Of a stretch of DNA of 29,889 bases, positions 1 to 22,447 are shown one piece after another. The stretch's first letter is position 1. Each line of letters opens with the position of its first letter. The position numbers and the translations under genes are program-made. A model generated the notes under the pieces. It made no database searches, had not been told where the DNA came from, and saw only the letters and a list, made by a program, of their open reading frames with translations. The stretch is from NCBI GenBank assembly GCA_002269645.1, contig NIVC01004967.1, positions 1 to 29,889 of the forward strand, written 5' to 3'. The stretch is from Macrostomum lignano (taxonomy: Eukaryota).

Positions 1-3000
1 GTCCTGATAAATGTCTTCTGTTTGAATGTCCATAATAAAACTGTCTGTGTCAGTGTACAAGAGTTTCATTTTATCCTTGTACTGCTGCTTCATGCCATAG
101 AAGAATTGGTACATCAGACGTTTTGATTCGTCGAGAACAGTGACACCTGTATAGATCGGCTTGCGCAGCGTCACCTTGGTTTTGTAAAATATGATCACAC
201 CTAAGTAGCTATTAAAGATATGGAGTTCTTTGAATGTTGGCTTTGACATATTTGCCTGAATAACATCAGGCTCTGATGAGGTAACAAGTTTCAGGTTTGT
301 TCTTTTCCGCTCATTCTCAAGAGTCTTGCCATAGACAGAGTTGTTGGCCAACTTAAAGAGGTTCTTGTCAAAGTCGTTGGTTGCTTTGGTCCTAAACTGG
401 GTGTTCTTATCAATGTAGGGTTTCATCCACGCTTCCTCTGTAAATGTAAGAGCCCGGTGAACTTTGGTGACCCTGCAACCAAGTGAGATAAAATATCTGA
501 AGCAGTTTGTAATGGATTTTGTAACGTGTCTTGTTGTTTAGATTCTGTGTTAGTTTCTCTGTATGTTCTTTTTCTGTTCCTGACAGGTGCCAAGTTCCAT
601 TATTATCATTGGGAGTTTCGATTATTTTCGGCACTTGATGTTCTCTGGGAAGGGTGGAAAGTCAGAGAAATAGTCGTGAAGCTCTGGTGGAATGTAAACA
701 TCAACCTCATAAATGGCAGCCAATGAAAAGTCCCATTTGAATTCTGATGAGGGTAGCCATCGAAAATCTCTAACTGGAAGATCTTGACTCATCGCCCACC
801 CGTAGAGATTATTAGCGTCCAAGTAAGTAATGTAGTTTGAGGGCTGCTCCTTATTGTAAGATTCAATGTAGGGATTGTTTGCTTTTGCATACCTGTTAAC
901 GCAAATTGAGATTCCCCCTCGCTTTGACGATTCGACAAAATTGTACATGTCAATGTCTGTAAGAAGTTCAATGTACCAATCTGGATCTTGATCCCATTTC
1001 ATTTTAAGCAAAGATTCCCAGCTAGTGGCAGGCAGAGACACATAATGTGCTGGATCGAGGCCATATGCTGTGTACCAGGTGCATCTGAAGGTTTCAAACA
1101 CATCAGCCAGCAGAAACACATCTGTGAAGAGGTAAAGCAGGTGATACTGGAAGAAGTTTTGACAATTAAAGTAATTATAGACATGCTTCGCGTGCTCATA
1201 GTCTTTGTCAGAGATTCCAGAGTCTGTTAGCTTTGAAAAGAACTTCTCCTGTGGTGGTAAACCTTCTTCAAATACGTGATACCCAGTAATATTTTCATAG
1301 GGGTAGAAGCCTTTTTCTCAGGAGTTTAAATGATTCATCAGTGTTGTTAATTTACTTGCAAACATCTTTGTATATGTACATTGTTCATCTTTTAGATTCT
1401 TGCTTAGTTCGTCTAGACTGGCAGCTAGAAATTGATATGAATCCTTCAGTCTTATTTTACCTGTACCCGAATTATCCTGTTTAATATCAACACACTTAAA
1501 CTTCTCCTTGTTCTCTGCGATGCAATCAAGGTGTATGTCTGGAATCATGCCGATTTTTTCAACTATTAAATGCATGTCATAGTTCTTTGCGTTGTGACAA
1601 AATATCGTTAGATCATGAATGTTCGATTTTAGCTTTAGATTACAGGTGTTATGCGCTGCACCTCTAAATTTCCCAGTAAAGTGGCAGTGGTCCCTAACGG
1701 TGGGGTTTTTAATATTAGTGCAAGTTAAATGTTTCCTGCAGATGTGGCAATGAGTTGCTGATAGGAAATTACTTTCATCCTCCTCAGTCATCATTATTGG
1801 AACAGGTTGAAGGGTGCTAATCACTTTTTGCAACTCTAACATTCTGGCAATAAACTGCTCCACACACTGCTCTCCAAAGAAATAATTATACTCAACAAGT
1901 CCTTTTGTATTAATAAAGGCATATGCTACTGAATTGGGGACATGTTTTTGAGTTTGAGTTTGTTTTTGAGTTTCCGGCATGATTGAGCATTCGAAATCAG
2001 CATATACAACAAATGGGAGCTTCTCCATCTTGTGATAGTTCTTAAACCGGAGATACTTCTCTTCAGCTGAAGGAAGAGAGCAGTTTGTCGGGTGATCCTC
2101 GCATGATAATTCATGCTCTGTTAGTTTTCAAAGCGTTCAGGTCCACTGTAATGCTTAAGGCACAAGCGGCAGATGGCAACAGCCTCGTGATGATTATTCA
2201 ACTGCTTGTGAATGAGTCTTGAAAGATCTTTAATCCAAACATAGTGAGCCTCCTCTAGTAAATTACCAATCACTAGAAGATCCACTTCAGTCCGCCTTTT
2301 CCCCTCGGGATCTAAAACGTCTTTGCTACATCTGACCGGTTGAACTTTCTCAGTTTTTTCACTCCACTCAAAGACTGTGATTCTAATTTTGTTATTAAAC
2401 ACTTCTTCTAGCTTTGGGATCTGAGAGATCGCCAAGCCTCCTTTGTCAAACCTGATTCCCTTCTTTTCGCATTCGATGAGATAGTAGTTGAAATAATTTT
2501 GATAATTTGAGGTTCTTTCGGGGTGGTGAGGTACACTAAAAAGTGCAGAAAGAACTGCCCATAGAGCACAGCAATTGTCTTTATTTTTAACATTTATGCA
2601 AGCTTTTTTACCGGCTAGCTTATGCGGGAGCTCTATATAAGAGGAGGCTTTAAGTGGGTCATATTTCATGACCATGACAGTCGCTCTTTGAATCCCTCCC
2701 ACGACCCATCCGGAACCTCTGGATGTAAACGCTTCAATTTTCTTATTGACATCTTGAAGGAAAGGATCCAGTGTGTCTGTAGGGGTGAATGGCTTTGCCT
2801 TTGTTGTCATGTAATACTCGAGATGCTCAGTGGGTTTCGCAGGCATATAAAACGCAATCTTGAATGATATCTGTAGTTTAAAAGTCTTGCGTGTTTTGAG
2901 TGTGTGATCAACAACTGATTGGATGCTGTCTTTATAGTCGTAGATGTTTGCGGTGGTACCGTTGGTGCCGTTTATTGGGATTGTGTACTCTATGTAATGT

Positions 3001-3380
3001 TCTGTAAACTTCCTCTGTGCAAAATTAATCTCTTCAATGGCAAGCTCCGACTCTTTTAAATGGATTAATTGCTCTAATTTCTCTTGTTCCTGCTTATTTT
3101 GTGGGTACTTAGCTTTTTCACCAGTGAGAGTTTCGTATTTGTTAACTAAGTTGCGACTCCTCTCTTGGTGTTCCTTTGCAGAATTTTTTATAGGCGCATA
3201 CTGGTTTGATTCTAATTGATTGATGATTTCCAACTGTTTTTCATAGCTTCCCAGGTGACCAGGGTCGGTGTTGAACTTTTGTTTGCATGCTTCTCTTAGT
3301 GAATTACTTTTGTCTTGAAATGAGACGCCTTTTGAAAAATATTTGTTGACTAAATCTCTTGCTGGATTAGCTTTTGGCAT
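1..3380 (-). pseudogene. Protein-primed family B DNA polymerase (pPolB), frameshifted, 3' end outside the window
   Basis: Stitching frames gives ExoI YADFE, ExoII FCHNAKNYD, KGFYPYE, ExoIII YLFTDVFLL, motif A YLDANNLYGWAM, motif B KLANNSVYGKT and motif C LYTDTDS (about 39-59). The N-terminal 419 aa has GSGW and CINVKNKDNCCALW typical of Maverick PolBs. Frame breaks lie near 2125, 1350, 1314, 625 and 491. Confidence 0.95.
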
Positions 3381-3423
3381 TTTTTTCTATAAAATAAAAA
3401 ATTTTTTTGAGGGTGACCACCCT
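3381..3423 (-). promoter_or_regulatory. Palindromic promoter-like motif upstream of pPolB
   Basis: Minus strand reads AGGGT-GGTC-ACCCT (3423-3410), then C, A7, TT, with 29 nt between palindrome and ATG. The same architecture recurs at 7480-7520. Confidence 0.6.
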
Positions 3424-3504
3424 GATAGAAAAGTTGAACTGTTTCTACATCCTATAAGTAGCGTTAGGTTTATGAAGCTGGATAAAGTGGGGTTTTAAAC
3501 CTCA

Positions 3505-3950
3505 TCACATCCGCATTATTGTAAACCCAGCATTGTGCAGTGTCATGATGGCTTTGACAATGTCAGACTTGCTTACAGAATTTTCATTCTCACAATCATC
3601 ACGATCGGGGCAGCCCTCTCCTGCCTTAATTGTTATACCTTTGTCTCTTGCAATCTTTTGCAATTCAGCTGGTGGGCTCTATCATTCCCAGCTTTAACAG
3701 CAGTTGCTACACCTCCAGCTACACCACCTGCGGCACTTACAGCGCCTGCAATGATCGGAATAAGAGCTGCTAATGGTAGGATTCCTCCTGACTTTTCATC
3801 TGTGATGCTGTGTCTTTGCTCATTACACTGAAGTATTTGCTGCGTGGGATCGATTTTTACTTTGACACCTTTAATTGATATAATACCTGGTTTCTTTGAT
3901 TCAATGATTTTATTGAGTTTATTGATGGTTCTGGTTTCAATCTTTGTCAT
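3505..3950 (-). CDS. Adenovirus pX(mu precursor)-like small virion protein with one frameshift near 3670 (about 148 aa when restored)
   Basis: KSGG-ILPLAALIPIIAGAVSAAGGVAGGVATAV resembles the adenovirus pX C-terminal GGILPLLIPLIAAAIGAVPGIA. Adding one G at CAG(G)CT continues the frame as ELQKIARDKGITIKAGEG...DIVKAIMTLHNAGFTIMRM to TGA at 3507-3505. Confidence 0.7.
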
Positions 3951-3966
3951 TTTTTATTTTAATATT

Positions 3967-5004
3967 TTAATTAATTTCTGTGTCAGCTGGTATCACTAGG
4001 AGTTCAGCTCTAGTGAATGACCGCGTGGGGGATTTAGGGTTAAAGGCCTGAGATAAAAAGTAATAGTCACCGGAGTCGGAGGTAAAATGTCTGTCTATTT
4101 TATGTACATCAAGGCTGAAGTATGGATCTGTAGCTCTTCTTTTGGTGTCCTTCTCTAGCTCTCCAGGTAGATATAAAAAGCGTAGAAACTCAGAGTTTGT
4201 CAGTATGTATGGTGATTCAACTCCTGGAAGCTTAGGGTAGTTCGAGGTGTGTTTTGTGTTGTGTGTGTTGTGTGGGGTTGTCGTGTTGTTGTCTGTTCTA
4301 TGAGATGCCTTAAGTTCGACAGTGTCTTGTTTAATTGCATGGGATGGTTTCAATCCAGTCATGCGTGTGACTTCATTGTTCAGTTGCTCTATAACAGTGG
4401 GGAGCCGGTCTGACCACTTGGTATAGTACTGACCACTTTTTAGTTTCAGCTCTTCAGCTGTCTGCTTAGTGAATAGCCTCTTGGCTAGAGTTAGATTGAA
4501 TCTTTCCACAAAAGCCTGGTCTCTGTGCAAGTTTGTTCTGCCATAGCGAATCTCTGTGTTTTTCTTTTCCATAAGGGATTTCACTACACCCATGAATTCC
4601 TTACCCGGGTCGGTCATAAAGATTTGGGGGTATGTGAGCGGAGAGTTTTTATAAATATCTTGCAGTGCGCTGGCAACAACCTCTGACTTCTTCGTCTTGA
4701 GTGGGCGAGCTTCCTTATATCTGGAAGCAATGTCAATAATTGTAAGAGCATACTTGTAGCCTGAGTCGTTGGGGAGAAACAAAAGATCTGCTTGGTGCGC
4801 TTCATTAGGTTTATAAATACTGAAATGGCGCCTTTCAAATTTTACTGGTGGGAAATAGACTTGAAAGACAGCCTGCTTAGAGAGCCATTTTTCTACTGTA
4901 GCTTTTGGCTCTTTACTCAGCTCCATGAGTTTACTAACAGCATTTTTGCCTACAAAGAATCCTTTGTCGCTGTAGTAGAGTTTTTTAAGTTTCTGATCTG
5001 TCAT
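3967..5004 (-). CDS. Retroviral-type (rve) DDE integrase of Maverick type, intact, 345 aa
   Basis: QADL, LTIIDIASRY, TDPGKEF and FVERFNLTL supply the D-D-E triad. The C-terminal part has YLPGELE..RRATDP..SL and ELLVIP. There is a CA-rich low-complexity insert at about 4245-4295. Confidence 0.95.
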   Translation of the reverse strand: MTDQKLKKLYYSDKGFFVGKNAVSKLMELSKEPKATVEKWLSKQAVFQVYFPPVKFERRHFSIYKPNEAHQADLLFLPNDSGYKYALTIIDIASRYKEARPLKTKKSEVVASALQDIYKNSPLTYPQIFMTDPGKEFMGVVKSLMEKKNTEIRYGRTNLHRDQAFVERFNLTLAKRLFTKQTAEELKLKSGQYYTKWSDRLPTVIEQLNNEVTRMTGLKPSHAIKQDTVELKASHRTDNNTTTPHNTHNTKHTSNYPKLPGVESPYILTNSEFLRFLYLPGELEKDTKRRATDPYFSLDVHKIDRHFTSDSGDYYFLSQAFNPKSPTRSFTRAELLVIPADTEIN

Positions 5005-5034
5005 TTATTTAAAAAGAAAAATTTAAATAAAATA
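5004..5034. promoter_or_regulatory. Symmetric bidirectional intergenic element between integrase and PLA2 genes
   Basis: Only 30 nt separate the divergent ATGs (5004 and 5035). The 10-bp arms TTTATTTAAA (5004-5013) and TTTAAATAAA (5022-5031) are reverse complements. Confidence 0.6.
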
Positions 5035-5484
5035 ATGCAGCGCTCTGGTGGTAAAATAGATTCACATGGACTGATAGAAAAGCTTCCTCGTCCAAACAAA
5101 GGCTGGACACTTCCCGGCTATAAATATTGCGGGCCTTTGAATCCACTTGAAATACAGTTAGATAAAAACAATTATCCAAATCTTGGGCATGAGCCTGTGA
5201 ATGAGCTAGACTCTGTCTGCATGTGGCATGACGTTAAATATAGAGATTTTCCTGAGGAGAAGAATCGCTGGGACAAAGAAATGCTTAGGAGACTAGACAA
5301 TATAGGGGCTTCAAGCGGGTGGAAGGAATCGATCGCTCGGAAGCTAGTTAAAGCTGTTATTTTTAGTAAGGCAAAGTTGGGATTGGGAATGGACGTCGAG
5401 GGTGGGGTGGGTTTTGCATTGCACGCGCCAAGCAAAGAATTAGGAAGACTGCTGAAAGAGCTGGGGGTTGAGAGAGCAGAATGA
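5035..5484 (+). CDS. Parvovirus VP1u-type phospholipase A2-like protein, 149 aa (true start MQRSGG at 5035; the upstream part of the 4792 ORF overlaps the integrase antisense)
   Basis: Ca-binding loop LPGYKYCGPLN, catalytic LDSVCMWHDVKY and a downstream D in WDKEM. Confidence 0.9.
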   Translation: MQRSGGKIDSHGLIEKLPRPNKGWTLPGYKYCGPLNPLEIQLDKNNYPNLGHEPVNELDSVCMWHDVKYRDFPEEKNRWDKEMLRRLDNIGASSGWKESIARKLVKAVIFSKAKLGLGMDVEGGVGFALHAPSKELGRLLKELGVERAE

Positions 5485-5630
5485 TTCAAGTGGCTCTAGC
5501 GGTTGGAAAGAAAGCTTGTAAAGGGCGGCTATATTTTCCTTATGACATTTTGCCGTGTGGTGGGTGGGTGTTGAGCGGAACGGATATGGCAGCTGTTTAT
5601 TGTCAACCATTATCCTATACTCAATGTGCC

Positions 5631-5722
5631 GCAGATACTGCAGTATTCAATGTGAAAAGTATTCAATGTGAAAAGCAGCAGATACTGCAGTATTCAGTGT
5701 GAAAAGTTTTTTATGTGAAAAA
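5631..5722. repeat. Short repeat cluster between convergent genes
   Basis: GCAGATACTGCAGTATTCA occurs twice, each copy with the 12-bp palindrome ATACTGCAGTAT (5635-5646, 5682-5693). TGTGAAAA occurs four times. Confidence 0.8.
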
Positions 5723-5765
5723 GCAAGAGTCATAGCAGCAAGAATCATTAGTCACAGCAGATTAG

Positions 5766-6383
5766 TTAACCCAGGAGTGCACTGGCCTCTTCTTCTTCTA
5801 GCATCTTCAATGCCTCATCGGCATACTTAATTATTGAGCGCAGTCGATACAGCGAGATGCCACAACGATTTAGAATAGGGCGAGTGTTGCTGAGTCTTGC
5901 CACCCGGATTAAGAAATTCCCCCAAACCGGCTTAAATCGAAGCTTCATGGCAAACGCTCTATATTCCTCAGCAGACAGTACGAGCTTCATGCGGATCAGA
6001 ATTTTTCCAGCCTTTATTCCGTATTGAAGTCCTTGATTTTGTAGTTCATTTATCATTTTTTCAATTTTGTTGAGCTCATTCACAACTTCTGCAATGTCGT
6101 GCCTCCCAGAGACAAATTCCACAGCCGGTTGTGGAATGACACGAGCAAGTGAATCACGGAGTAAGTTCGCAGCCTCATTGATGTGCTCCAACTTCTTTCG
6201 TTCGTCAATTCCTTCCACCCTACCAGTGATAGATGGTAGATTAATCACACACTTATTGAATCGCCTCGCAACTTTGTTAAATTCCTCAATCCAATACTTC
6301 GATTGCTTCATGTCATCACTCTCGCACATCCTCCTTACTAAAGCAACCAAATCATCCTCAAATGTAGGCATTGCTATGTCCAT
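5766..6383 (-). CDS. Uncharacterised accessory protein (about 205 aa from MDIAM), helical, possible C-terminal HTH-like domain
   Basis: Uninterrupted ORF. Candidate 74-nt 5'-UTR intron 6464-6391 (AAG|GTAATA ... T-rich tract ... TTTTAG|A). AATAAA on minus at 5601-5596. The domain call is pattern recognition only. Confidence 0.65.
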   Translation of the reverse strand: MDIAMPTFEDDLVALVRRMCESDDMKQSKYWIEEFNKVARRFNKCVINLPSITGRVEGIDERKKLEHINEAANLLRDSLARVIPQPAVEFVSGRHDIAEVVNELNKIEKMINELQNQGLQYGIKAGKILIRMKLVLSAEEYRAFAMKLRFKPVWGNFLIRVARLSNTRPILNRCGISLYRLRSIIKYADEALKMLEEEEASALLG

Positions 6384-6763
6384 TGAAATTCTAAAACACA
6401 TTGTAGGTGAAGTAAATGAAAAAAAAGCAGAACTAGTATAAGCAAATATATTAATAATTATTACCTTGCAGATTTAAAAAAATATTTAGCGCGTATATGG
6501 ATACTGAATCGGGAATCAGTAGTTCTTTAGTAGGTAGAGCTCTGCTCAATACTAAGCTCTACTCTAAGATATGGCTCTAAGAATTTTTCTCAGTGCATTA
6601 TACAATAGATACAGTAGCTTCCGCGCGATCGACACTGACACGGTAACGTTGTTATCCCTGGGCGGCAAATGTGGCAGCAGCTGGTGGAACCGGTTAAAGA
6701 CACAATACGCTCTCTTATACCCAGTAAGTATAAATCTATATTAACCCTGGAAGAACTCTGCCC

Positions 6764-7013
6764 TATACGATTTGCTGTACACGAAATGAGCGGGAGGAAA
6801 ATCTATAGTTTACAACTCCAAGTCCAAGAGGCAAGGCCGTTCTAGCTTCTATTGTGCTACAATTGAGGCACTGGCAAGCAAGAGAGGGAGAGAGGGACGG
6901 GACGGGAGCCATGGACGGGACGGGGCTGCTAGAGTCTGGCAAGCGGGCAGAATTATAGGGCTATTGCCATATACAATTTGCTGTACACAAAATGAGCGGG
7001 AGGAAAATCAATA
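6764..7013. repeat. Pair of 44-bp direct repeats (6764-6807, 6970-7013) flanking a G-quadruplex-type motif
   Basis: TATAC(G/A)ATTTGCTGTACAC(G/A)AAATGAGCGGGAGGAAAATC with 3 mismatches over 44 bp. GGG-N5-GGG-N2-GGG-N2-GGG at 6886-6906. Confidence 0.85.
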
Positions 7014-7083
7014 TTCTTCTGGATCCGAATAATATCGATTTTGGATTGTGCGAGGATCTACAATATCTTGTTCTTCCTCTACC

Positions 7084-7479
7084 CTATTCATTTCCAACCG
7101 TGCAACTAGCTCGCACGTCGCGGAGGAAATTCTCGGGCGGATAGCCCTGCACACTCAGTGTCTGCTCTTTCCTCCTTATTTCCTCCTGTTTTATGTAAAT
7201 ATACTTGTGAATAAATGAACTTAGTATGTTTTTAGTAAACTTCAACTGCCTAATGATTTCTACAAAGTTATAGTAGCTATCGTAATCTTTTACGTAGGTT
7301 ACTCCATACTTATGAAACCAATGTCTTTGGAGAGCTTGATTAATATTAGGGACGATGATATCAACGCCGGGCCAATATTTTCTCATGTACTCGCTGCATT
7401 CAAGTTTGCATCGGTACTTACTCTTGTAATTAGGCTCGTGCGTTTTGTAATAAGAACCTGGAGAGACAACTGGAAACAT
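7084..7479 (-). CDS. Uncharacterised accessory protein, about 131 aa (likely start MFPVV)
   Basis: Open Tyr/Lys-rich ORF. The ATG sits in the A-rich context AATAAAA-ATG like the other Maverick genes and is preceded by the same palindrome as pPolB. Confidence 0.6.
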   Translation of the reverse strand: MFPVVSPGSYYKTHEPNYKSKYRCKLECSEYMRKYWPGVDIIVPNINQALQRHWFHKYGVTYVKDYDSYYNFVEIIRQLKFTKNILSSFIHKYIYIKQEEIRRKEQTLSVQGYPPENFLRDVRASCTVGNE

Positions 7480-7520
7480 TTTTATTGAGAATTTAATTTT
7501 TTTCAAAGGGTAAGGACCCT
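7480..7520 (-). promoter_or_regulatory. Second copy of the palindromic promoter-like motif
   Basis: Minus strand reads AGGGT-CCTT-ACCCT (7520-7507), then TTG, A7, TT, with 27 nt between palindrome and ATG at 7479. Confidence 0.6.
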
Positions 7521-7596
7521 GGGTTAGGGGATTCAAAGTCTTTGGGATGCGTAGCGAATTGCGAATTGAATGTGTGGAGAAGAATACAGATTGTTT

Positions 7597-7920
7597 TCTG
7601 ATTGTTTCGAAGATGCTATGGGTGGATGTCAGTGGATTATGTCAGTGTCAGTGAGCATAACAGGTGTCCTACTGTTATGCTCTGATTCTGTCAGGGATAA
7701 TGCTCTGATTCTGTCAGGGATAATATGGATGGATTTAATAGGATTGTGGAGGATGTTTTGTGAGCGAGTGCGACCCCCCTTTTTTCTGATTCTGTCAGGG
7801 ATAATATGGATGGATTTAGGTGGATTATGGACGAAGTTTTTGGAGCAGGTGCGACCCCCCTTTTTTCTGATTCTGTCAGGGATAATATGGATGGATTTAA
7901 TGGGATTATGGAGGAGGTGA
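7597..7920. repeat. 81-bp (27-codon) tandem repeat, about 3.5-4 diverged copies, probably the decayed 3' end of a minus-strand gene
   Basis: TCTGATT anchors at 7597, 7681, 7704, 7785 and 7866 (81-bp period plus a 23-bp duplication). Minus-frame unit SSIIxLNPSILSLTESEKRGVAxAxKT. Perfect 11-bp hairpin 7653-7682. Confidence 0.85.
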
Positions 7921-7924
7921 AAAA

Positions 7925-9170
7925 TTTTGTCCCAGAAGCCCCCTCATGCCTTCTACTCGGACACGTTATGAGACAGCTGGGCGTTCTGGAATGCCTGGTG
8001 GAGACCACTGGCAACAACGGCCGCTTCAAGGCGGCAGAGCTGCCCGTCATCGACTGTTAACAGGAGTTTGGGCTGCTCGGCCGGAATCTGCTGGTCCTCG
8101 CACCGGTGCACCATGCCAGTTCTGATGAGTCAGCCGCCAGCAACAGGTATGAGAGCTTGTTGGGAATATCTGGTGCTACGGGAGAGATCCGTCTTTGTGC
8201 AGGAGCTAGGCCAATTTTCCAGGCAGCCAGAGAACTGCCCTTAGCGCTGAAGCACTTGGTTAAGAAGGAGCTGGACCTGATGGAAAGTGCTGGAATCGTT
8301 GAGAAGGTGATGTCGTCGGAATGGGGCAGTCCAATTGTGGTGACGGTGAAGTCAGATCGGGCATCCGTGAGAATTTGTGGAGATTATTCGGCTGTTAATC
8401 GGTTGGTTCAAGACCAGACCTTCCTCACTCCCTCGATTGAGACAGCCTTTTCAAAAATGGCCAACAAGAAGCTGTTCTGTCGGTTGGACCTATCGGATGC
8501 GTACTATCAGGTTCCCCTGGATGAGGAATCGAAGGCGGTGACCACCATAAACACTCCGTTTGGTTGCTACAGGTTTAGCCGGTTGCCGTATTTCATTAAG
8601 GTGTCGCCATCTGTTTTTCAACGTGTGATGGAAAAGCTCCTGGGAGACCATCCATGTGTCATAGTATATCAGGACGCTGTGCTGATCGGTGCTGCGAGCC
8701 GGGCAGAGTTGCAGAAAATTAGGGAGCAGGTGCTCAACAAGTTAAAGGCCGCAAATGTCAAGATCAACGAAGCGAAGTGCGTGATGGAAGTTAACAGCCT
8801 GAAGTTTCTTGGTTACATTATTGATGATGAAAGAATAAAACCCGATCCGGGCATGGTGAAACGTGTGATGGATGTCGAGGTGCCGAAGACCAAGAAAGAT
8901 TTGGAGAGATTTCTAGGACTGGCTCAATTTTATAGACGGCTGGTTCCAAACTTTTCTGAGAAATGTCGGCCTCTTCAGGAGCTTCGCCGCGGTGACCGGA
9001 TCAGGCTGGGCTATCGATTCAGGGTGCCAAGGCTGGCTCTGACTCGGAGCTGCGTGAACCTGAGGTGACAGACTGTGACTCCCCGCTGAGTTCTGGAGAT
9101 GAGACTTTCCAGCCCCACAGCTCGTATGATTTGCGGCCTCGTAAACCTGTTTGTTATAAAGGTCTAAAGA
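7925..9170 (+). pseudogene. pol: Defective gypsy pol (TAA at 8058-8060; YQDA instead of YxDD at 8667-8678; internal deletion)
   Basis: Translation of the ORF track frames 7806, 8106 and 9065. Confidence 0.9.
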
Positions 9171-9219
9171 CTTGTTTTGGCTTGTTTTGTTTTTTGTTTT
9201 TCTGCTTTTGGGGGAGCAG

Positions 9220-9479
9220 TGTTGGGGTTGTACTTTGGTTTTTACGTTGTTTCACTGTCTCTTTCTCTCTTCCCCTCCCGTGACTGATCATTCTTGCGCG
9301 CTATCGTTTTACCCCTACCCGTTGGTACATTTGCGCTTGCCAGTGTGCATGGTTTTAACCCCCAGCCAATCAGAGGGCATTTGTCTATTAATGTACGTGG
9401 TTTCGTGTTATGAAGTCAAATAAATACTTTCGTCACTTCGGTAGAGTTCTTTAATGGTATTCTCCTTCGCTTGCAAACA
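9220..9479 (+). repeat. 3' LTR of gypsy element 1 (260 bp) preceded by PPT 9210-9219
   Basis: GGGGGAGCAG followed by TGTTGG...CAAACA termini. CCAAT box at about 9366 and AATAAA at 9419-9424. Confidence 0.75.
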
Positions 9480-9509
9480 TGACCTGACTCAGTTTAGCCT
9501 AGACTAACA

Positions 9510-9671
9510 GCATCTTTGTTACTTTGAGTGACTGAAGCATCTTTGTTACTTTGAGTGACTGAAGCGTCTTGGTAACTTTGAGTGCCTGAAGTGTCTTGGT
9601 AACTTTGAGTGCCTGAAGTGTCTTGGTAACTTTGAGTGCCTGAAGTGTCTGGGTGACTTTGAGTGACTGAA
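9510..9671. repeat. 27-bp minisatellite, 6 copies
   Basis: Unit GCATCTTTGTTACTTTGAGTGACTGAA with variants, starting at 9510, 9537, 9564, 9591, 9618 and 9645. Confidence 0.95.
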
Positions 9672-10087
9672 GCGAAAGCGGAAGCGAAAGCGGAAGCGAA
9701 AGCGGAAGCGAAAGCGGAAGCGAAAGCGGAAGCGAAAGCGGAAGCGAAAGCGGAAGCGAAAGCGGAAGCGAAAGCGGAAGCGAAAGCGGAAGCGAAAGCG
9801 GAAGCGAAAGCGGAAGCGAAAGCGAAAGCGAAAGCGGAAGCGAAAGCGAAAGCGAAAGCGGAAGCGAAAGCGGAAGCGAAAGCGGAAGCGAAAGCGGAAG
9901 CAAAAGCGGAAGCGAAAGCGGAAGCGAAAGCGGAAGCGAAAGCGGAAGCGAAAGCGAAAGCGGAAGCGAAAGCGGAAGCGAAAGCGGAAGCGAAAGCGGA
10001 AGCAAAAGCGGAAGCGAAAGCGGAAGCAAAAGCGGAAGCGAAAGCGGAAGCGAAAGCGGAAGCAAAAGCGGAAGCGAAAGCGGAAGC
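9672..10087. repeat. 12-bp minisatellite (GCGAAAGCGGAA)n, about 35 units, fused to the 27-bp array
   Basis: Direct reading. Variants are 6-bp dropouts and GCG to GCA changes. Confidence 0.97.
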
Positions 10088-13093: not shown

Positions 13094-13868
13094 AAAAACG
13101 GCACAATCGATATTTATGACATTCTGACTACATGTGACCTTTGGCTTTTGCCTGGTCAGCCCAATGCAAAAGCGGATAAAACGGTGGTCCGAGAGCGAGT
13201 CTTCGTCCTAAAATTGCTAACCCGACATGTAACTGCAAATACATGTAGTAGTCCGGGTGAGGCGATGGTGGTGTCGATGACTTCGATGACCGCCCGTTGT
13301 TGAACCATGCCCCGCTTCATCTGCTCGGCCGTCTGGTGCTGTGCGCTGGGTGTTGGTCGCCTCCGCCCTCAGCAGCTCCCGCCTCCGCCTCGGACGCTTC
13401 TGCGTCCCGCCCCCCCCCCGCCTTGCTTACTGCCATGGGGAGGGTCGGCCTCGAAGGAAGGAATGCGCAGCTTCCAAAGACCAACGTTGATGAAACTGTC
13501 GAGCGAATAGCGCCACATCACGCCTCATCAAAGCGTCCGACAGCCCCAGACTGGCTGCGAATCCGGTGCCGTCTGTGCGCTTTTGGATGCCGTGCACGGA
13601 CCGAAAGGAGCTTGTGGTGAAGCGGTTGCGGCTGACGGGACCAGGAGACCAGGAGGAAAAACGGCACAATTGATATTTATGACATTCTGACTACATGTGA
13701 CCTTTGGCTTTTGCCTGGTCAGCCCAATGCAAAAGCGGATAAAACGGTGGTCCGAGAGCGAGTCTTCGTCCTACAATTGCTAACCCGACATGTAACTGCG
13801 AATACATGTAGCAGTCCGGGTGAGGCGATGGTGGTGTCGATGACTTCGATGACCGCCCGTTGTTGAAC
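13094..13868. repeat. 212-bp direct repeat (13094-13305 and 13657-13868) enclosing a 345-bp insert
   Basis: Base-by-base comparison gives 4 substitutions in 212 bp. Confidence 0.95.
13312..13657. repeat. 345-bp copy of 18221-18565
   Basis: 6 substitutions plus a 1-bp poly-C length difference between copies. Confidence 0.95.
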
Positions 13869-14205: not shown

Positions 14206-17200
14206 TCAAGATGCTTGGTACCTGTCCGGTGCTCTCCGGATACGCACTGGGTACCTGGACTCCGAAGGTTGAATTGAACTTGGTTCTTCATCGTCTTCGA
14301 TAGGCTTGGGGGTTTCAGCCTCGGCTCTGTCTCTGACATGGTTCCGGTGCACCACCAGATCTCGTCCTCTATGGTCCTGTACTCGTCTCAGCTGTTCTCC
14401 AACCGCTTCTTGAAGTACTCCCTCTCTCCACTCCTTGTTGAAGGGATCTTGGATCCAAACAGGACTGTGAATTTGATCTGTTTTCTTGTCCTGGAACGAC
14501 CGACGATGTAGCAATGACAGTCTAGTATTAAACTGGCGCCCAAACATTTCTCGACACGGAGCGACACCGTTGGCTCTTGGGCCGACTCGAATGGCGTACA
14601 AAGCTTGTTGCATTCGAACTTCCGGGTCTGGATCGTTTAGCTGTTTTAGCTTGGTCTTCAGCTTTTTCACTGCTACCTCGGCTACTCCATTCGAAGCGGG
14701 ATGGTATCTGGGTGACTTGAGGTGTAGCACTCCAATTCGCTTTAACCAGGCTTCTGTTTCACTTGCAACGAACTGTGGTCCATTGTCAGTAACCAGTACT
14801 TCCGGGATGCCAAAGTTGCAAAACGTTCTTCGCAGCACTTTGATGATGGCTGCCGCATCAGTATCACGAATCCATTCGGCGCTAATAAATCCAGTCTTAG
14901 CGTCCGAGACCACGAGAAAATATCTTCCTTCTAATTGACCCAGGTCAGCATGCACTCGGCACCAGGCTTCCTTTGGTACTGGCCACGGTCTGAGCACAGC
15001 TTTCTGTGACGGTCTTAGGCGTTGACACGTGTGACACTCGGCCACGCACTTTTCAATCTCCGCCTCCATATTTGGCCACCACACATACTGCCGCGCCCAA
15101 GCCTTCATTGCTTGGATTTCTGGATGGGAATCATGGAGAAAGCGCATAACTTGTGCTCTCAACTTTGAAGGGATGGCAATTCGTTGGTCAAATAGCAGTA
15201 GGTTATCCTCGCAGCTCAGTCTGTTCTGCACTTTCCGGAATGGCTCTGGAATATCTTCCCCAGATCGCAAACGACCTAGAACTTCTTGGATCTCCACGTC
15301 TTTTCGGGTTGCCTGTTCTATTTGATCCGCATTGACTGGTCCTTCGTCGGACAGGGAGATATCCACCGCAGCGATTTCGTTCACTGCTTCAGTCACTGAC
15401 CTATCACTCCAGTTGTTTCCCTCAGTTGGGAGTCTTGATAGCGCATCTGCATGTGGAATTTCGTGTGTCCTTTTCCCTCTGATGTTATATTGGTACGTTG
15501 CAAGCAGTTCCGCCCAGCGCTGCACTCGTTTGCTCGCTCTTTCAGGCAGGTCCTTGTGAGATGCGAACAGAAATTCTAGCGGTCTGTGATCTGTCACAAT
15601 CACAAAACTTCGATAGGCCAGAAATCTATTTAACTTCTTGACGCACCAAACCTCACCAAGAGCTTCTCGCTCAAGTTGGCTGTATCGCGACTCGGCAGGT
15701 GTGAGTTTCTTAGACACAAACGCTACAGGCCTTCCATTTTGCTCCAGCACTCCTCCAATGCCGTAGGGCGATGCATCTGTAGTCAGAGTTAGCTCCTCAC
15801 TTGGATCGTACGGCGCTAGCACCTGCCTTGATGTAATGTCCTGCTTCAATTGCATCACGGCCTTTGTGTGCTCTTCTTGCCATGTCCAGCTGACATCTTT
15901 CTTCAGCAGGTCATACAGAATGGCAGTCTTCGTGGCCACTTGCGGAATGAACGGCGCATAGAAATTTATCAGTCCCAGAAAAGTTCTCAGCTCTTCCTGG
16001 TTTCTTGGATCTTCCATGCTTTGTATTGCCGTTACCTTATCCTCGTTCATGCAGCATCCATCCTTTGAGATCTTAAGGGCTAGAAACTCGACCTCCTCCT
16101 TGTCGAACTGGCACTTCTTAGCATTCAGTGTGATGTCATTCTCTTGCAGCCTTTTAAGTATTATTTCCGTCTTCTCGGCTAAATTTTCCCGGTTTTTTTC
16201 CACAGACTAGAATGTCGTCAATGAACACCACCACTCCGAGGACATCCCGAAGCAACTCGCATAGTGTGTTCTGAAACAATCCAGGAGCAGATGACAGTCC
16301 GTATGGTAATACCCTGTACCGAAAGTAACCAAAAGGTGTTGCGATAGTAGTGATATCCCGTGAGTCCTCGCACAGCTCAAGGTTATGGTATGCATCCTTC
16401 AAATCTAGCACAGTGAAACGGCTGCATCCTGAGATGGCTCGTTGCACATCCGCCTTTGTTGGCATATCGATTGGCGGTAGCCGTAAAAACTGGTTGACCC
16501 GTCTATAGTCTCCACACAGCCTGATGTCTCCCGAGCTTTTGGGAACGACCACAATCGGAATAGCAAACACCGGCTGTTCTACTTTTTCAATTATCTTCCG
16601 CTTTTCCAGATCTTCTAATCTTTCCTTAACGGCTGGTACCAGCGAAAATGGGAGTGGTCGGGCCTTCGATACCACTGGTCTCGTGTTTTCTTCTACTTCC
16701 AACTTTACTTGAATTCGCTTATAAGCCACTGAAGCTTGACAACGGCGTTTTGTAACTTCGATACCCAAACTACTGAACCAATTTCGGCCAATAACCGGCT
16801 TTGCGTTCATCTCCATGACTACCACAGGTAATGAGCACTCACTTTCATCTTCGGTCTAAACTCGAACATCTGCGGTACCACATACTGGTAGGTCTTGTCC
16901 TCCATATGATGTTAGTCGACAATTTGGGTCTGTCCAATGCAGTCCTAGTTGTTCAGCCAAAATCTTAGGAATGCAGGTCACTGATGCTCCAGAGTCCACC
17001 ATCATAGCAACGTCCTTATCGTTCAGTTTTACATTGATCCAGACGCTTGATCTGTCCCGGTCATCGCATAAGCTAAAAAGCTCATTGTCCTTGGCTGGTT
17101 TATCCTCCTTGATTCCTGCACACTCTCGCATTGACAGCTTTCCTTTGATGGAGCCGGATGCCATCCTTCCATGTGAGCTAGCTGGCTTATTAAGCTTACA

Positions 17201-17455
17201 TGCAGCTTTAAAATGGTTCATTTTCCCACATTTTCGACATTTTGCTCCAAACGCAGGGCATGCCTTTGGCGGGTGCCTCATCATACAGAAATTGCAAGCC
17301 TTACTGAATGTGCGTCCCTGAGCTTGGGCCCTATTTTGTTGTCGTACTCTGCCCTTGGTCGCACTGACTGTTTCCACCTTTCCATTAGCGCTTAAGGCAC
17401 TCTTGCTTACTTGCTCTTGCGCCGTGGCGGTCTCCACTGCCAGCTCCAGGGTCAA
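14206..17455 (-). pseudogene. pol: gag-pol of gypsy element 2 with an in-frame TAG at 16858-16856 and a frameshift in the A7 run at about 16193-16199
   Basis: ORFs 16856-17479 and 16154-16825 share a frame. ORF 14206-16203 carries the RT C-terminus, RNase H and integrase intact. Confidence 0.93.
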
Positions 17456-17475
17456 AAGCCAATGCACCAATTTCA

Positions 17476-17871
17476 CCAATGCATGTGGTGCGCACTTACT
17501 TTCCTTTCAATGAGCAGCTCGAACTGATGGGACACGGCGTAGTCAAGCTAGCGCGTCGCAGAACACTGGATTGTCGCGCGAAAAGTAGACGGATGCTATA
17601 CCAGCGCATATTTATTGGGAAGGAGGTTATTGATTCAAAAAACACAGATGTCCCTACAGTCCAAGGGTCAGGTTTAATTCATGCCTCAAAAGCTTTTGCA
17701 GCAAAAATCAAAGATCTTGAGCGAGGCTGGGAGTCTGCCATGCAAAAGCAGTGCGTGGTAGCCAGACGGTACATTAATTGGCTTACCTTTAGTCATCCAG
17801 GGAGCTATTTCTGTCGTGCGCACCAGGTTGACTGACGCCTTCACGCAGTGCTGGGTGTTAGTCTGCAGACA
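17476..17871 (-). pseudogene. APE-type LINE ORF2: N-half of the endonuclease, frameshifted
   Basis: CLQTNTQHCVKASVNL, PW..KG, PRSRSLIF, CRDICV, IASVYFSRD and ELLIERKVSAHHMHW correspond to the LQxNxxH, QEPW, S.Y.P and GDxNAHHxxW motifs. Confidence 0.8.
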
Positions 17872-18600
17872 TCAGGTGTAGACGCTGGCATCATTGCAGA
17901 TCGGGCGTTGCAGCCGTCAGGAGTTTCTCCTCCTCCTCGGCGCTCCACCAGCTTCGGGTGGGGATCACCGGTGTCCATGGGCTCCTCTTCAACGAAAAGC
18001 CCCTGACCAGCAGGAAGGCAGCCTTCGTCCATCGGCTGCAGGGTCCTCTACCTCGGATTGGTCAAATGCCCTGGAGCAGCCAGCCACCAGGGCAGGGGGT
18101 CCGTCTCAGGTCGGCCATGCCCCGGGGGGTTGGGCCCAGCTGGGACGTCCCTGGACAAACTGGTGCGTCTGGACGTCCGGGCGACCTCTCGCCTCAGCTG
18201 GCTGATTTTGGCAATGCGGACCGCTTCATCTGCTCGGCCGTCTGGTTCTGTGCGCTGGGTGTTGGTCGCCTCCGCCCTCAGCAGCTCCCGCCTCCGCCTC
18301 GGACGCTTCCGCGTCCCGCCCCCCCCCGCCTTGCTTACTGCCATGGGGAGGGTCGGCCTCGAAGGAAGGAATGCGCAGCTTCCAAAGACCAACGTTGATG
18401 AAACTGTCGAGCGGATAGCGCCACATCACGCCTCATCAAAGCGTCCGACAGCCCCAGGCTGGCTGTGAATCCGGTGCCGTCTGTGCGCTTTTGGATGCCG
18501 TGCACGGACAGAAAGGAGCTTGTGGTGAAGCGGTTGCGGCTGACGGGACCAGGAGACCAGGAGGAGCTTGTGGCTAAGCGGGTGAAAAGTTCGCTTTAGA
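17872..18600 (-). other. GC-rich putative 5' region/ORF1 of the same LINE, degenerate
   Basis: Directly upstream of ORF2. A low-complexity frame 18392-17841 with one stop (KRPRRRR, EEEPMDT). No zinc knuckle seen, so the ORF1 identity is positional inference. Confidence 0.45.
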
Positions 18601-19426: not shown

Positions 19427-19830
19427 ACTGTCCACCATTGAGTACCCGAAAACCGTGGCACAGTGAGTACATATTACGCTCGTATCCATCATTGAGCACT
19501 CAGAATTTGTGACAGTGAGCACATATTGTCTATTATTGAGTACTCAGAATCTGTGACAGTGAGCACACATTGTCCACCATTGAGTACTCAGAATCTGTGA
19601 CAGTGAGCACACATTGTCCAACATTGAGTACTCAGAATCTGTGACAGTGAGCACACATTGTCCACCATTGAGTACTCAGAATCTGTGACAGTGAGCACAC
19701 ATTGTCCAACATTGAGTACTCAGAATCTGTCACAGAGGGCACATATTGTCTATTATTGAGTACTCAGAATCTGTGACAAATGAGCACCGATTGTCCACCC
19801 TTGAGTACCTAGAGTGAGCAGACATTGTCC
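19427..19830. repeat. 44-bp minisatellite, about 9 copies, with a palindromic core
   Basis: Unit ACATTGTCCACCATTGAGTACTCAGAATCTGTGACAGTGAGCAC. TGTC anchors at 19527, 19571, 19615, 19659, 19703, 19747 and 19792. Confidence 0.95.
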
Positions 19831-20346: not shown

Positions 20347-20974
20347 AAAGGGGATGTGTACTTAAAAGTCAAAATGGAGCCTGAAGCATTGGGTCCAGAT
20401 TTCTCTAAGCCAATCCTTTCATTTGGAGCCCAATAGCTCCCGTTATGCCAAAAACCCGACCACTTTAGCATTTGGGGATCTCTATGGGGAGAAATGGGAT
20501 AAATAGGGATTTCATGTGAACTTAAAGCTCTATGAGCTTGAAATACTTAAATGACAAGATGACCAAGACGACCATATTACCAGAGCATTAGCATAGTCAT
20601 CTGGCGACCCATCTGGCGACCAGATCAATCAGTCCCAGAACGACCACACCACAGGCTCTGCTGAAGAGGGACAGCTGCACGTCGAACATCGCCCGCCGCC
20701 GGCAACTTCAGCCGCCCCGACTAAGGATCCTCCCGTCTCATCCCCAGTTACTGCCTCGTCATCTGTTTCATGACGTCAACGCCCTCCTTACCCCCATGAC
20801 TGCAATGATGCAGCAGAATCAGCTCCGGCCGCTCTCATCCGCTCCACTGTCCTTTTGAAGGTTCGTCTCCCGACAATCAACGGCGCTGACCCTGCCGCAT
20901 TCCCGTAGTCCCGTATAGAAATCGGGACCCAATGCTTTAGGCTCCATTCTGACTCTTAAGTACACATCCCCTTT
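20347..20974. mobile_element. MITE-like or foldback element with 58-bp inverted repeats
   Basis: 20347-20404 and 20917-20974 are reverse complements with 4 mismatches. No TSD identified. Confidence 0.6.
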
Positions 20975-21106: not shown

Positions 21107-21184
21107 GAGAGTCCTATTTGACTGGAGATGCCGAACTGCTTACCACAAACTCAGCTGCTCAAAAAAATCTCTCTGAGCAGTGAA

Positions 21185-21923
21185 ATGTTCCGCCCAGCAG
21201 CGACTCTCTGCGTTCTGTTCTGCACTGCCTTCCTGTTGACTTTCGTCACCTGCAGGTTCGTCCGCTTCTCCTACCTGGGATGCTACGAAGACCGATCCTC
21301 AGCCAGAGACCTGAACGGGCTCAGTGGAGTCAGCAAGATTGGTGGATTTGATGTCGATAACGGGCGAGTCAGAAGTACTACGGAGATGTCGCACGAGCTG
21401 TGCAGCGGCATCTGCTCGATAGGCAGCTTCCCGTACTTCGGAGTGCAGCATAAAAAAGAGTGCTACTGTGGTCACTCATACGGATCCCATGGCTTGGTGA
21501 GCGAAGCCGACTGCAGCAGGGATTGCGTGGGAAACGCAATGCAGAAATGTGGCGGCGGCTACAGAAACTCCGTGTTCTCCCTGAGCTACCCAGGTACTGT
21601 TCTGATTTCTAAGTCTTAGTACCTATAGCCAGAATGAAAGCATGCTAATTATTTAAAAGTTGCATCTTCGTTGAACTTCAGTTTCAGACAACAACATCTA
21701 CACGGTAGTGAAGCAGTCCAGCCCTCCCGTGACATCCGGTACGACTTCCGTCTGGCCTGTCGCTGCCCAGTCCGTCGAGGACTGCCTGCTCCGGTGCAGC
21801 GCCAGAGCCGACTGCCAGGCCGCCGTTTTCTCCCGACAGGAGCTCGCCTGCCACCTGCTGGAGTTCGTGTACCCGCCTGGCCACCTGAGCGGACCCGAGT
21901 GGACTCTATTCGTGCGTGGCTGA
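21185..21923 (+). CDS. Secreted WSC + PAN/apple-domain protein, 214 aa, two exons (21185-21593, 21688-21923)
   Basis: Signal peptide MFRPAATLCVLFCTAFLL. WSC motifs YLGCY, C..IC, YFGVQ...ECYCG and C...C.G...QKCGG. Phase-1 intron G|GTACTG...CTAAT...TTTCAG|AC joins in frame to CLLRC...CQAAVF...CHL. AATAAA at 22023-22028. Confidence 0.9.
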
Positions 21924-22447
21924 GCTCGCGAGTGGTGCGGTGACCGACTGGCTTAGTTGAGCATGGACTGAAGCAGACTGTATCAACCCGTCCTTGATGC
22001 GAAATCCCACATCTTCGAGACAAATAAAGGTCCAACCTAAAAAGCTCTGTTGGTTTTATTGCAGAAAATCTGATTGAAGGGTTCCGTTCGTTTCTGTACT
22101 GTTTTTGGCGCTGAATAACTTCCTCTTGAAAAATCATTAGTAATGGATTTTAAACTTTCCGGTTTTTTTCTATTTGATTAAATTCAAATAAGTATCATTG
22201 AGTGGTAAAACAAAACAGAATCATTTCAAAATTAGAGATTTTCGCTTTTATTTGTATTTTTCTGGATGCTTTTGCTTCCAAAGAGACGGCTGCTTTGTGG
22301 AATCGCATTTCGGCATTACTCTTCTAGGTACTTTGTAGCTTGAAATTACTATGAGAATCAACCTTGGACAAAACATACGCTTGCTTCGTTTGCAATTTTT
22401 TAATTCCCAAGTTGACTTTTTACATAATACCCAGCGACATTAAAAAG

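Follow-up and report, generated by a model that had tools for sequence, protein, structure and literature searches.

Frame breaks in an assembled Maverick copy of Macrostomum lignano: consensus error or recent mutation?

Mavericks replicate by a protein-primed polymerase and insert into the genome by an rve integrase, and their packaging is believed to involve capsid and core proteins. A contig of Macrostomum lignano (GCA_002269645.1, NIVC01004967.1), analyzed here over positions 1 to 29,889 of its forward strand and called the window throughout, begins within what appears to be such an element, and the reading frame of its polymerase gene is interrupted several times by small changes of length. 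The question raised by this locus is whether the interruptions belong to the DNA itself or arose when the DNA was assembled. An earlier reading of the letters alone (the sequence-only reading) took every lesion for an indel of one or two letters at a homopolymer, saw no nonsense change in the polymerase, and from this pattern preferred long-read assembly error or very recent slippage to old decay. We compared the locus with protein relatives and with contigs from public sequencing runs. Four runs of four studies (X2, X4, X6 and X12) were aligned as contigs to positions 1-9450 at 90% likeness, so that copies less than 90% alike are excluded. Short-read contigs drop rare variants, and one of the four runs may be the window's own source.

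A Maverick end inside a Ty3/gypsy element

Positions 1-7957 are very probably one end of a Maverick/Polinton, judging from the polymerase, the integrase and the end motif (Table 1). The Maverick side of the window spans about 8 kb and covers a single end of the element. The protein-primed DNA polymerase B (pPolB) gene is collinear in tblastn with 83 relatives of 1,000 or more amino acids, at 25-41% identity among the eight matches listed; these relatives are about 1,277 amino acids long, and at window position 1 the alignment has reached residue 1,127 or so. Among the best 120 of 1,447 matches there was no long polymerase protein more than 40% identical, and the named relatives among the matches listed come from insects and molluscs. 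PF03175 matches two pieces of the gene (E 1.9e-6, exceeding the curated cut-off on one piece), and PF02945 matches inside one piece. A pPolB2 label based on the PF02945 match was not adopted, as no tree stands behind it (bioRxiv 2023.08.22.554363, cited from an excerpt).

Table 1. Features of the Maverick end and its insertion site, in window coordinates
Feature	Position	Strand	Details
Protein-primed DNA polymerase B (pPolB)	1..3380, continues past position 1	-	In pieces; PF03175, tblastn
pX-like core protein gene (Adeno_PX)	3505..3950	-	PF05829 E 2.3e-7; 16 relatives of 83-168 aa
rve integrase	3967..5004	-	Open, 345 aa; PF00665
PLA2-like gene	5032..5484	+	Open; PF08398 E 6.4e-14
Accessory arm	5388..7240	.	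Minority form; contains 211-aa ORF
Probable terminal inverted repeat region	7241..7957	.	81-nt tandem units varying among copies
Host Ty3/gypsy protease-RT stretch	7958..8999	+	RVT_1; Maverick insertion site

In the integrase, whose closest relative found is 69% identical, the DDE residues D73, D132 and E167 are invariant in all nine aligned sequences. No relative of it was found in viral_contigs, where none of ten pattern matches was confirmed. An in-frame stretch rich in Thr, His and Asn (about 16 residues at 4244-4300, from a short GT-rich repeat) is absent in all eight aligned relatives. Two accessory ORFs of 211 aa (5769-6401, minus strand) and 131 aa (7087-7479, minus strand) belong to no Pfam family, and Atlas searches with them gave no usable match. 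Pfam found no capsid, ATPase or protease among the ten Maverick-side ORFs; the element leaves the window within the polymerase gene.

The Maverick ends with TCTACT at 7957, which agrees with (ACT)2 in five of six letters; Maverick ends are described as (AGT)2//(ACT)2 or (AG)3//(CT)3 in the available part of PMC8097293. The element end is fixed at 7957 by contigs of X12 and X6 whose match to the window sets in at 7958, partway through the contig record, as expected of a Ty3/gypsy without an insertion. The probable terminal region has no inverted-repeat partner inside the window, the second end of the element lying beyond it. In the run contigs this region carries joints and the bins of highest depth (7246-8190). 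The host gypsy differs from the X12 and X6 contigs by 17 other letters and no gaps in 1,042 nt; it has an in-frame stop at 8058, and YQDA replaces the double-aspartate motif of its reverse transcriptase. At 8999 it breaks off: contigs of all four runs stop matching there and those of three continue with other sequence, probably because of an internal deletion.

Farther along, the window holds a second Ty3/gypsy (14206-18600, minus strand) whose RNase H-integrase part is open over 666 codons; its frame changes at a seven-letter run (16193-16199), and positions 16856-16858 form an in-frame stop. A repeat of its 5' part, 98% identical, is present at 13312-13657. We considered the repeat pair 13312-13657 and 18221-18565 (six mismatches and one gap in a C run) as an LTR clock and dropped it, since the pair resembles a duplication of the gypsy's 5' part and not two LTRs. 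Arrays of 27-nt (six copies) and 12-nt (35 copies) units at 9509-10087 are open in several frames, and a 44-nt tandem repeat of 7.3 copies lies at 19485-19808. A probable host gene at 21122-21943 (plus strand) begins in a signal-like way and includes one exon for a WSC domain and one for a PAN domain, with a 61-nt inverted repeat pair (20347-20974) upstream.

Six frame breaks and the forms present in the runs

The six breaks in pPolB and the pX-like gene are where the sequence-only reading had put them: length differences against the run contigs, at 496, 629, 1314, 1350, 2124 and 3666, lie 0-5 nt away. In tblastn with the 83 long relatives, the first break is a single net frame change near 2125 (2121..2128, minus strand). 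The second and third (1311..1353, minus strand) form a pair, in which the sequence departs from the pPolB frame at about 1350 and rejoins it at about 1314, and the main frame between them has one stop. The fourth and fifth (491..631, minus strand) form another: the sequence departs from the frame at about 625-629 and returns to it at about 491-496, and the main frame has two stops in this interval. Both excursions were read from three-frame translations and from ungapped matches to the 83 long relatives, which favor the other frame strongly at 626-494 and weakly at 1332-1320. The pX-like gene is broken at about 3666-3670, where 12 of 15 relatives tested (15 of its 16 matches) switch to a frame that stays open from 3666 until a stop whose end is at 3505.

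Because two pairs of breaks restore the frame, one might suppose that programmed frameshifting or editing keeps the gene functional in its assembled form. Against this stand the main-frame stops enclosed by each pair, the abundant run forms, which differ at the breaks, and the long relatives, which are single open proteins; we regard such recoding as next to impossible.

The four long polymerase pieces have no stops in their own frames, as defined by the relatives, and the integrase and PLA2 ORFs are open, in agreement with the sequence-only reading on these points. As assembled, the copy still falls short of an intact Maverick as one section of PMC8097293 defines it (all core ORFs open, terminal inverted repeats and a target duplication), having five breaks in the polymerase and one in the pX-like gene; most features that the definition requires (capsid, ATPase, protease, the end of the polymerase, the other terminus) fall outside the window. 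To describe all lesions as indels was too wide, since each run shows 102-122 substitution places over 9,450 nt, and there are 27 length differences besides (40 of 136 substitution rows and 12 of the 27 length differences were listed).

The placement at homopolymers did not hold up. Two of the six breaks alter a run of three or four letters, one alters a run of two, and three leave run length unchanged; the letters proposed earlier agree with the sequencing runs at two of the six places. None of the homopolymer classes is enriched over chance (p 0.61, 0.11 and 0.08). Random places have a run of three or more letters within 5 nt in 63% of cases and within 10 nt in 84%, so that anyone choosing freely where a break goes can hardly miss one. 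In the polymerase, one of the 16 homopolymers of length five or more touches a break, and none of the four of length six or more does. We conclude that the breaks are scattered changes of one or two letters without a homopolymer signature.

The absence of stops carries little weight at such divergence. A stop results from 4% of single changes, and the chance of meeting none is 0.67, 0.44, 0.32 and 0.20 at 10, 20, 28 and 40 substitutions. The argument that had been drawn from this pattern was wrong: its homopolymers stem from free placement of the breaks and the contigs disagree with them.

We then asked how the runs read at the six places. Length differences from the window appear in all four runs at 496, 629, 1350 and 2124, and are listed in three of the four at 1314 and 3666. 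At five places one or more runs have the difference in their entire depth: X12 and X6 at 496 and 629, X6 at 1350 and 2124, X12 at 3666. In X2 and X4 it accounts for 55-85% of the summed depth at 496 and 629 and for 11-38% at 1314, 1350, 2124 and 3666; the rest of the depth pools contigs with other letters, contigs with the window's form and contigs whose ends lie close by. X6 has a depth of 260.7 at 3666 without a listed difference, and gap letters and loose ends near 1314. The X12 contigs with the difference have depths of 591-1,315, compared with 910-1,160 for the main polymerase contigs. Contigs bearing the difference thus match the main ones in depth and represent an abundant family form without the six breaks. 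We hold it very likely that the abundant family forms in these runs do not share the breaks, which would then be private to this assembled Maverick copy.

A young family and the cause of the breaks

Twenty runs from seven studies contain 59-67% of the sampled 31-mers of positions 1-7600, a divergence of about 1.3-1.7% if the differences are evenly spread. Of 8,003 aligned contigs in X2, 4,082 are 99% or more alike, and other runs give similar shares. Six frame breaks in 3.9 kb might be expected of an old, long-dead fossil. That reading is refuted by the 31-mer sharing and the contig alignment: the copy is about 1.3% from the run forms, a main run form has another length at each of the six breaks, the integrase and PLA2 ORFs are open and there are no stops. 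We consider a fossil extremely improbable, and here the preference against old decay was well founded. The family is young, abundant and apparently open in the polymerase.

Depth, taken as a relative hint and not as copy number, sets the main polymerase contigs of X12 against 155 for the gypsy and 48-56 for the window's own arm; in X6 the polymerase contigs have 251-446, the gypsy 48-50 and the arm 37-41. That X6 derives from RNA is a guess; it covers all 30 bins, spacers and gypsy included. The similar proportion of the family in X12 and X6 would be more in keeping with numerous integrated copies than with free replication in bursts. Over the arm (5388-7240) depth falls about 200-fold in the summed bins of X2, and 6-24-fold by single contigs in X12 and X6. 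In X2 the abundant form departs from the window sequence at 5387, inside the PLA2 gene, with a loose end in five contigs and a fall in depth. It continues with other sequence behind that point, so the arm present in the window (to about 7240) represents a minority form, which suggests that arms are exchangeable among copies of the family. Rearranged copies with skips of 66-867 nt within the stretch from polymerase to integrase are also present, and the terminal units vary. Opposite-strand joints in the polymerase (1909-1973; 1909/1949) occur at low depth in three of the four runs, as a fold-back or an inverted family copy would give.

Open polymerase forms at many times the gypsy depth and about 1% apart, exchangeable arms and variable terminal repeats, possibly with free genomes or particles, could mark an unusually abundant, still replicating Polintovirus-like family. 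We think this doubtful; if true, it would offer a natural system for seeking Maverick virions, which, according to PMC8097293, had not been observed. Free genomes or particles of this family, if they existed, would make it of much greater interest.

For the breaks themselves we propose the following. The window begins within a single copy, inserted in a Ty3/gypsy, of a Maverick family that is young and abundant, and the breaks may be consensus errors of the assembly, made in a multi-copy repeat where short-read correction fails. We judge such errors the most likely cause by a narrow lead, with about an even chance of being the right one. Frame changes are concentrated in the polymerase and pX-like genes (six in 3.86 kb, versus one in 6.46 kb of coding DNA elsewhere in the window; p 0.013, or 0.036 if two are counted), which favors error. 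Four of the six breaks lie in the first 1.4 kb, and would suit a thinly covered contig end if position 1 is the end of the contig. The long X6 pieces show 13 other letters and three gap events in 1,565 nt of polymerase, an indel share that is high for natural decay, where there is about one indel for every 7-10 substitutions. In endogenous Polinton-like viruses, as reported in part of PMC10120064, stops and frameshifts vanish on correction, and false consensus arises where near-identical copies stack; an excerpt of PMC11131425 makes a general remark on misassembly.

Other observations point away from error, including the minority shares at four places in X2 and X4 and the X6 coverage of 3666 without a listed difference. 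The flanking gypsy has no gaps in its 1,042 nt (chance 0.21 at the polymerase rate) and the integrase and PLA2 genes are unbroken, so the contig is not error-rich throughout; the indel shares of polymerase and gypsy do not differ significantly (p 0.10). The substitutions, with a ts/tv of 1.4-1.6, are transition-rich and resemble real mutation. The breaks may accordingly be real, in a copy that, after a recent insertion, lost its function and accumulated substitutions at about 1% of sites plus a few small indels; we hold this explanation less likely than not and second to consensus error. It would account for the lack of a run preference, and rearranged copies of the family do occur in the runs. 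The neighbors of the copy have decayed by substitution: the host gypsy through its stop and altered motif, and the second gypsy through its own stop. In vertebrate genomes, according to the consulted part of PMC8097293, up to 38 intact Maverick copies occur and 96% of Maverick loci are degraded. An absence of stops is likely enough at 10-40 substitutions (0.67-0.20). Six real indels would, however, imply about 40-60 private substitutions at the ratio given above for natural decay, and the chance of no stop would then be 0.09-0.20. Moreover, silent changes make up four of the eight listed polymerase substitutions, and at several of these places some depth remains for other letters, which means that lineages in working order vary and account for part of the 1%; and the integrase, PLA2 and 211-aa ORFs of the same copy are unbroken.

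The depth data also allow a mixture, in which a unique end (the junction and the minority arm) was joined to a polymerase pieced together from near-identical copies, the breaks being part real alleles of other copies and part errors. The arm is a minority form, yet the polymerase matches the abundant one; the substitutions cluster at 3182-3301 with partial shares; and false consensus is known from comparable regions (PMC10120064, in part). Linkage is unseen either way, as no listed contig piece spans the stretch, and we consider a chimera of this kind rather unlikely.

Because contigs drop rare variants, they do not show the window's form to be absent, and they close neither consensus error nor real decay. 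In preferring error or recent slippage to old decay, the sequence-only reading was right to discard decay, and error probably leads; what has gone is its reasoning from homopolymers and missing stops. The six indels in themselves matter little, since among young viral insertions present in many copies, ones that look broken are common. The state of the family is to be judged from accurate long reads, not from this contig.

Comparison with known Mavericks and related viruses

The element resembles the Mavericks/Polintons described in sections of PMC8097293 in having a pPolB, an rve integrase, an accessory region by the terminus and an end motif close to (ACT)2, and in the presence of degraded and open copies together in one genome. 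Here polymerase and integrase lie on the same strand with the pX-like gene between them, and the capsid, ATPase and protease genes, the second terminal inverted repeat and the 6-bp target duplication would lie beyond the window. With the Alpha adintoviruses, as far as PMC8502044 is cited here, it shares a PF03175-type PolB, an integrase, a PLA2-like gene and an adenovirus pX-like domain. Their PLA2X joins PLA2 to a C-terminal pX-like domain, whereas in the window Pfam places the two in separate genes on opposite strands, 1.1 kb apart; the PLA2 end of the abundant form behind 5387 is seen only in part. Alpha adintovirus PolB has an OTU-like domain at its N-terminus, and a Pfam search of the 421-aa N-terminal polymerase piece returned no family.

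The closest parallel to the breaks comes from the endogenous Polinton-like viruses (PMC10120064, in excerpt), where a multi-copy viral insertion associated with Ty3/gypsy likewise has apparent stops and frameshifts that are not in short reads. Artefactual breaks in such elements are therefore already published. In that case the gypsy lies inside the virus, the hosts are protists and the correction was made from raw reads; in M. lignano the Maverick lies inside the gypsy, and the comparison draws on run contigs only.
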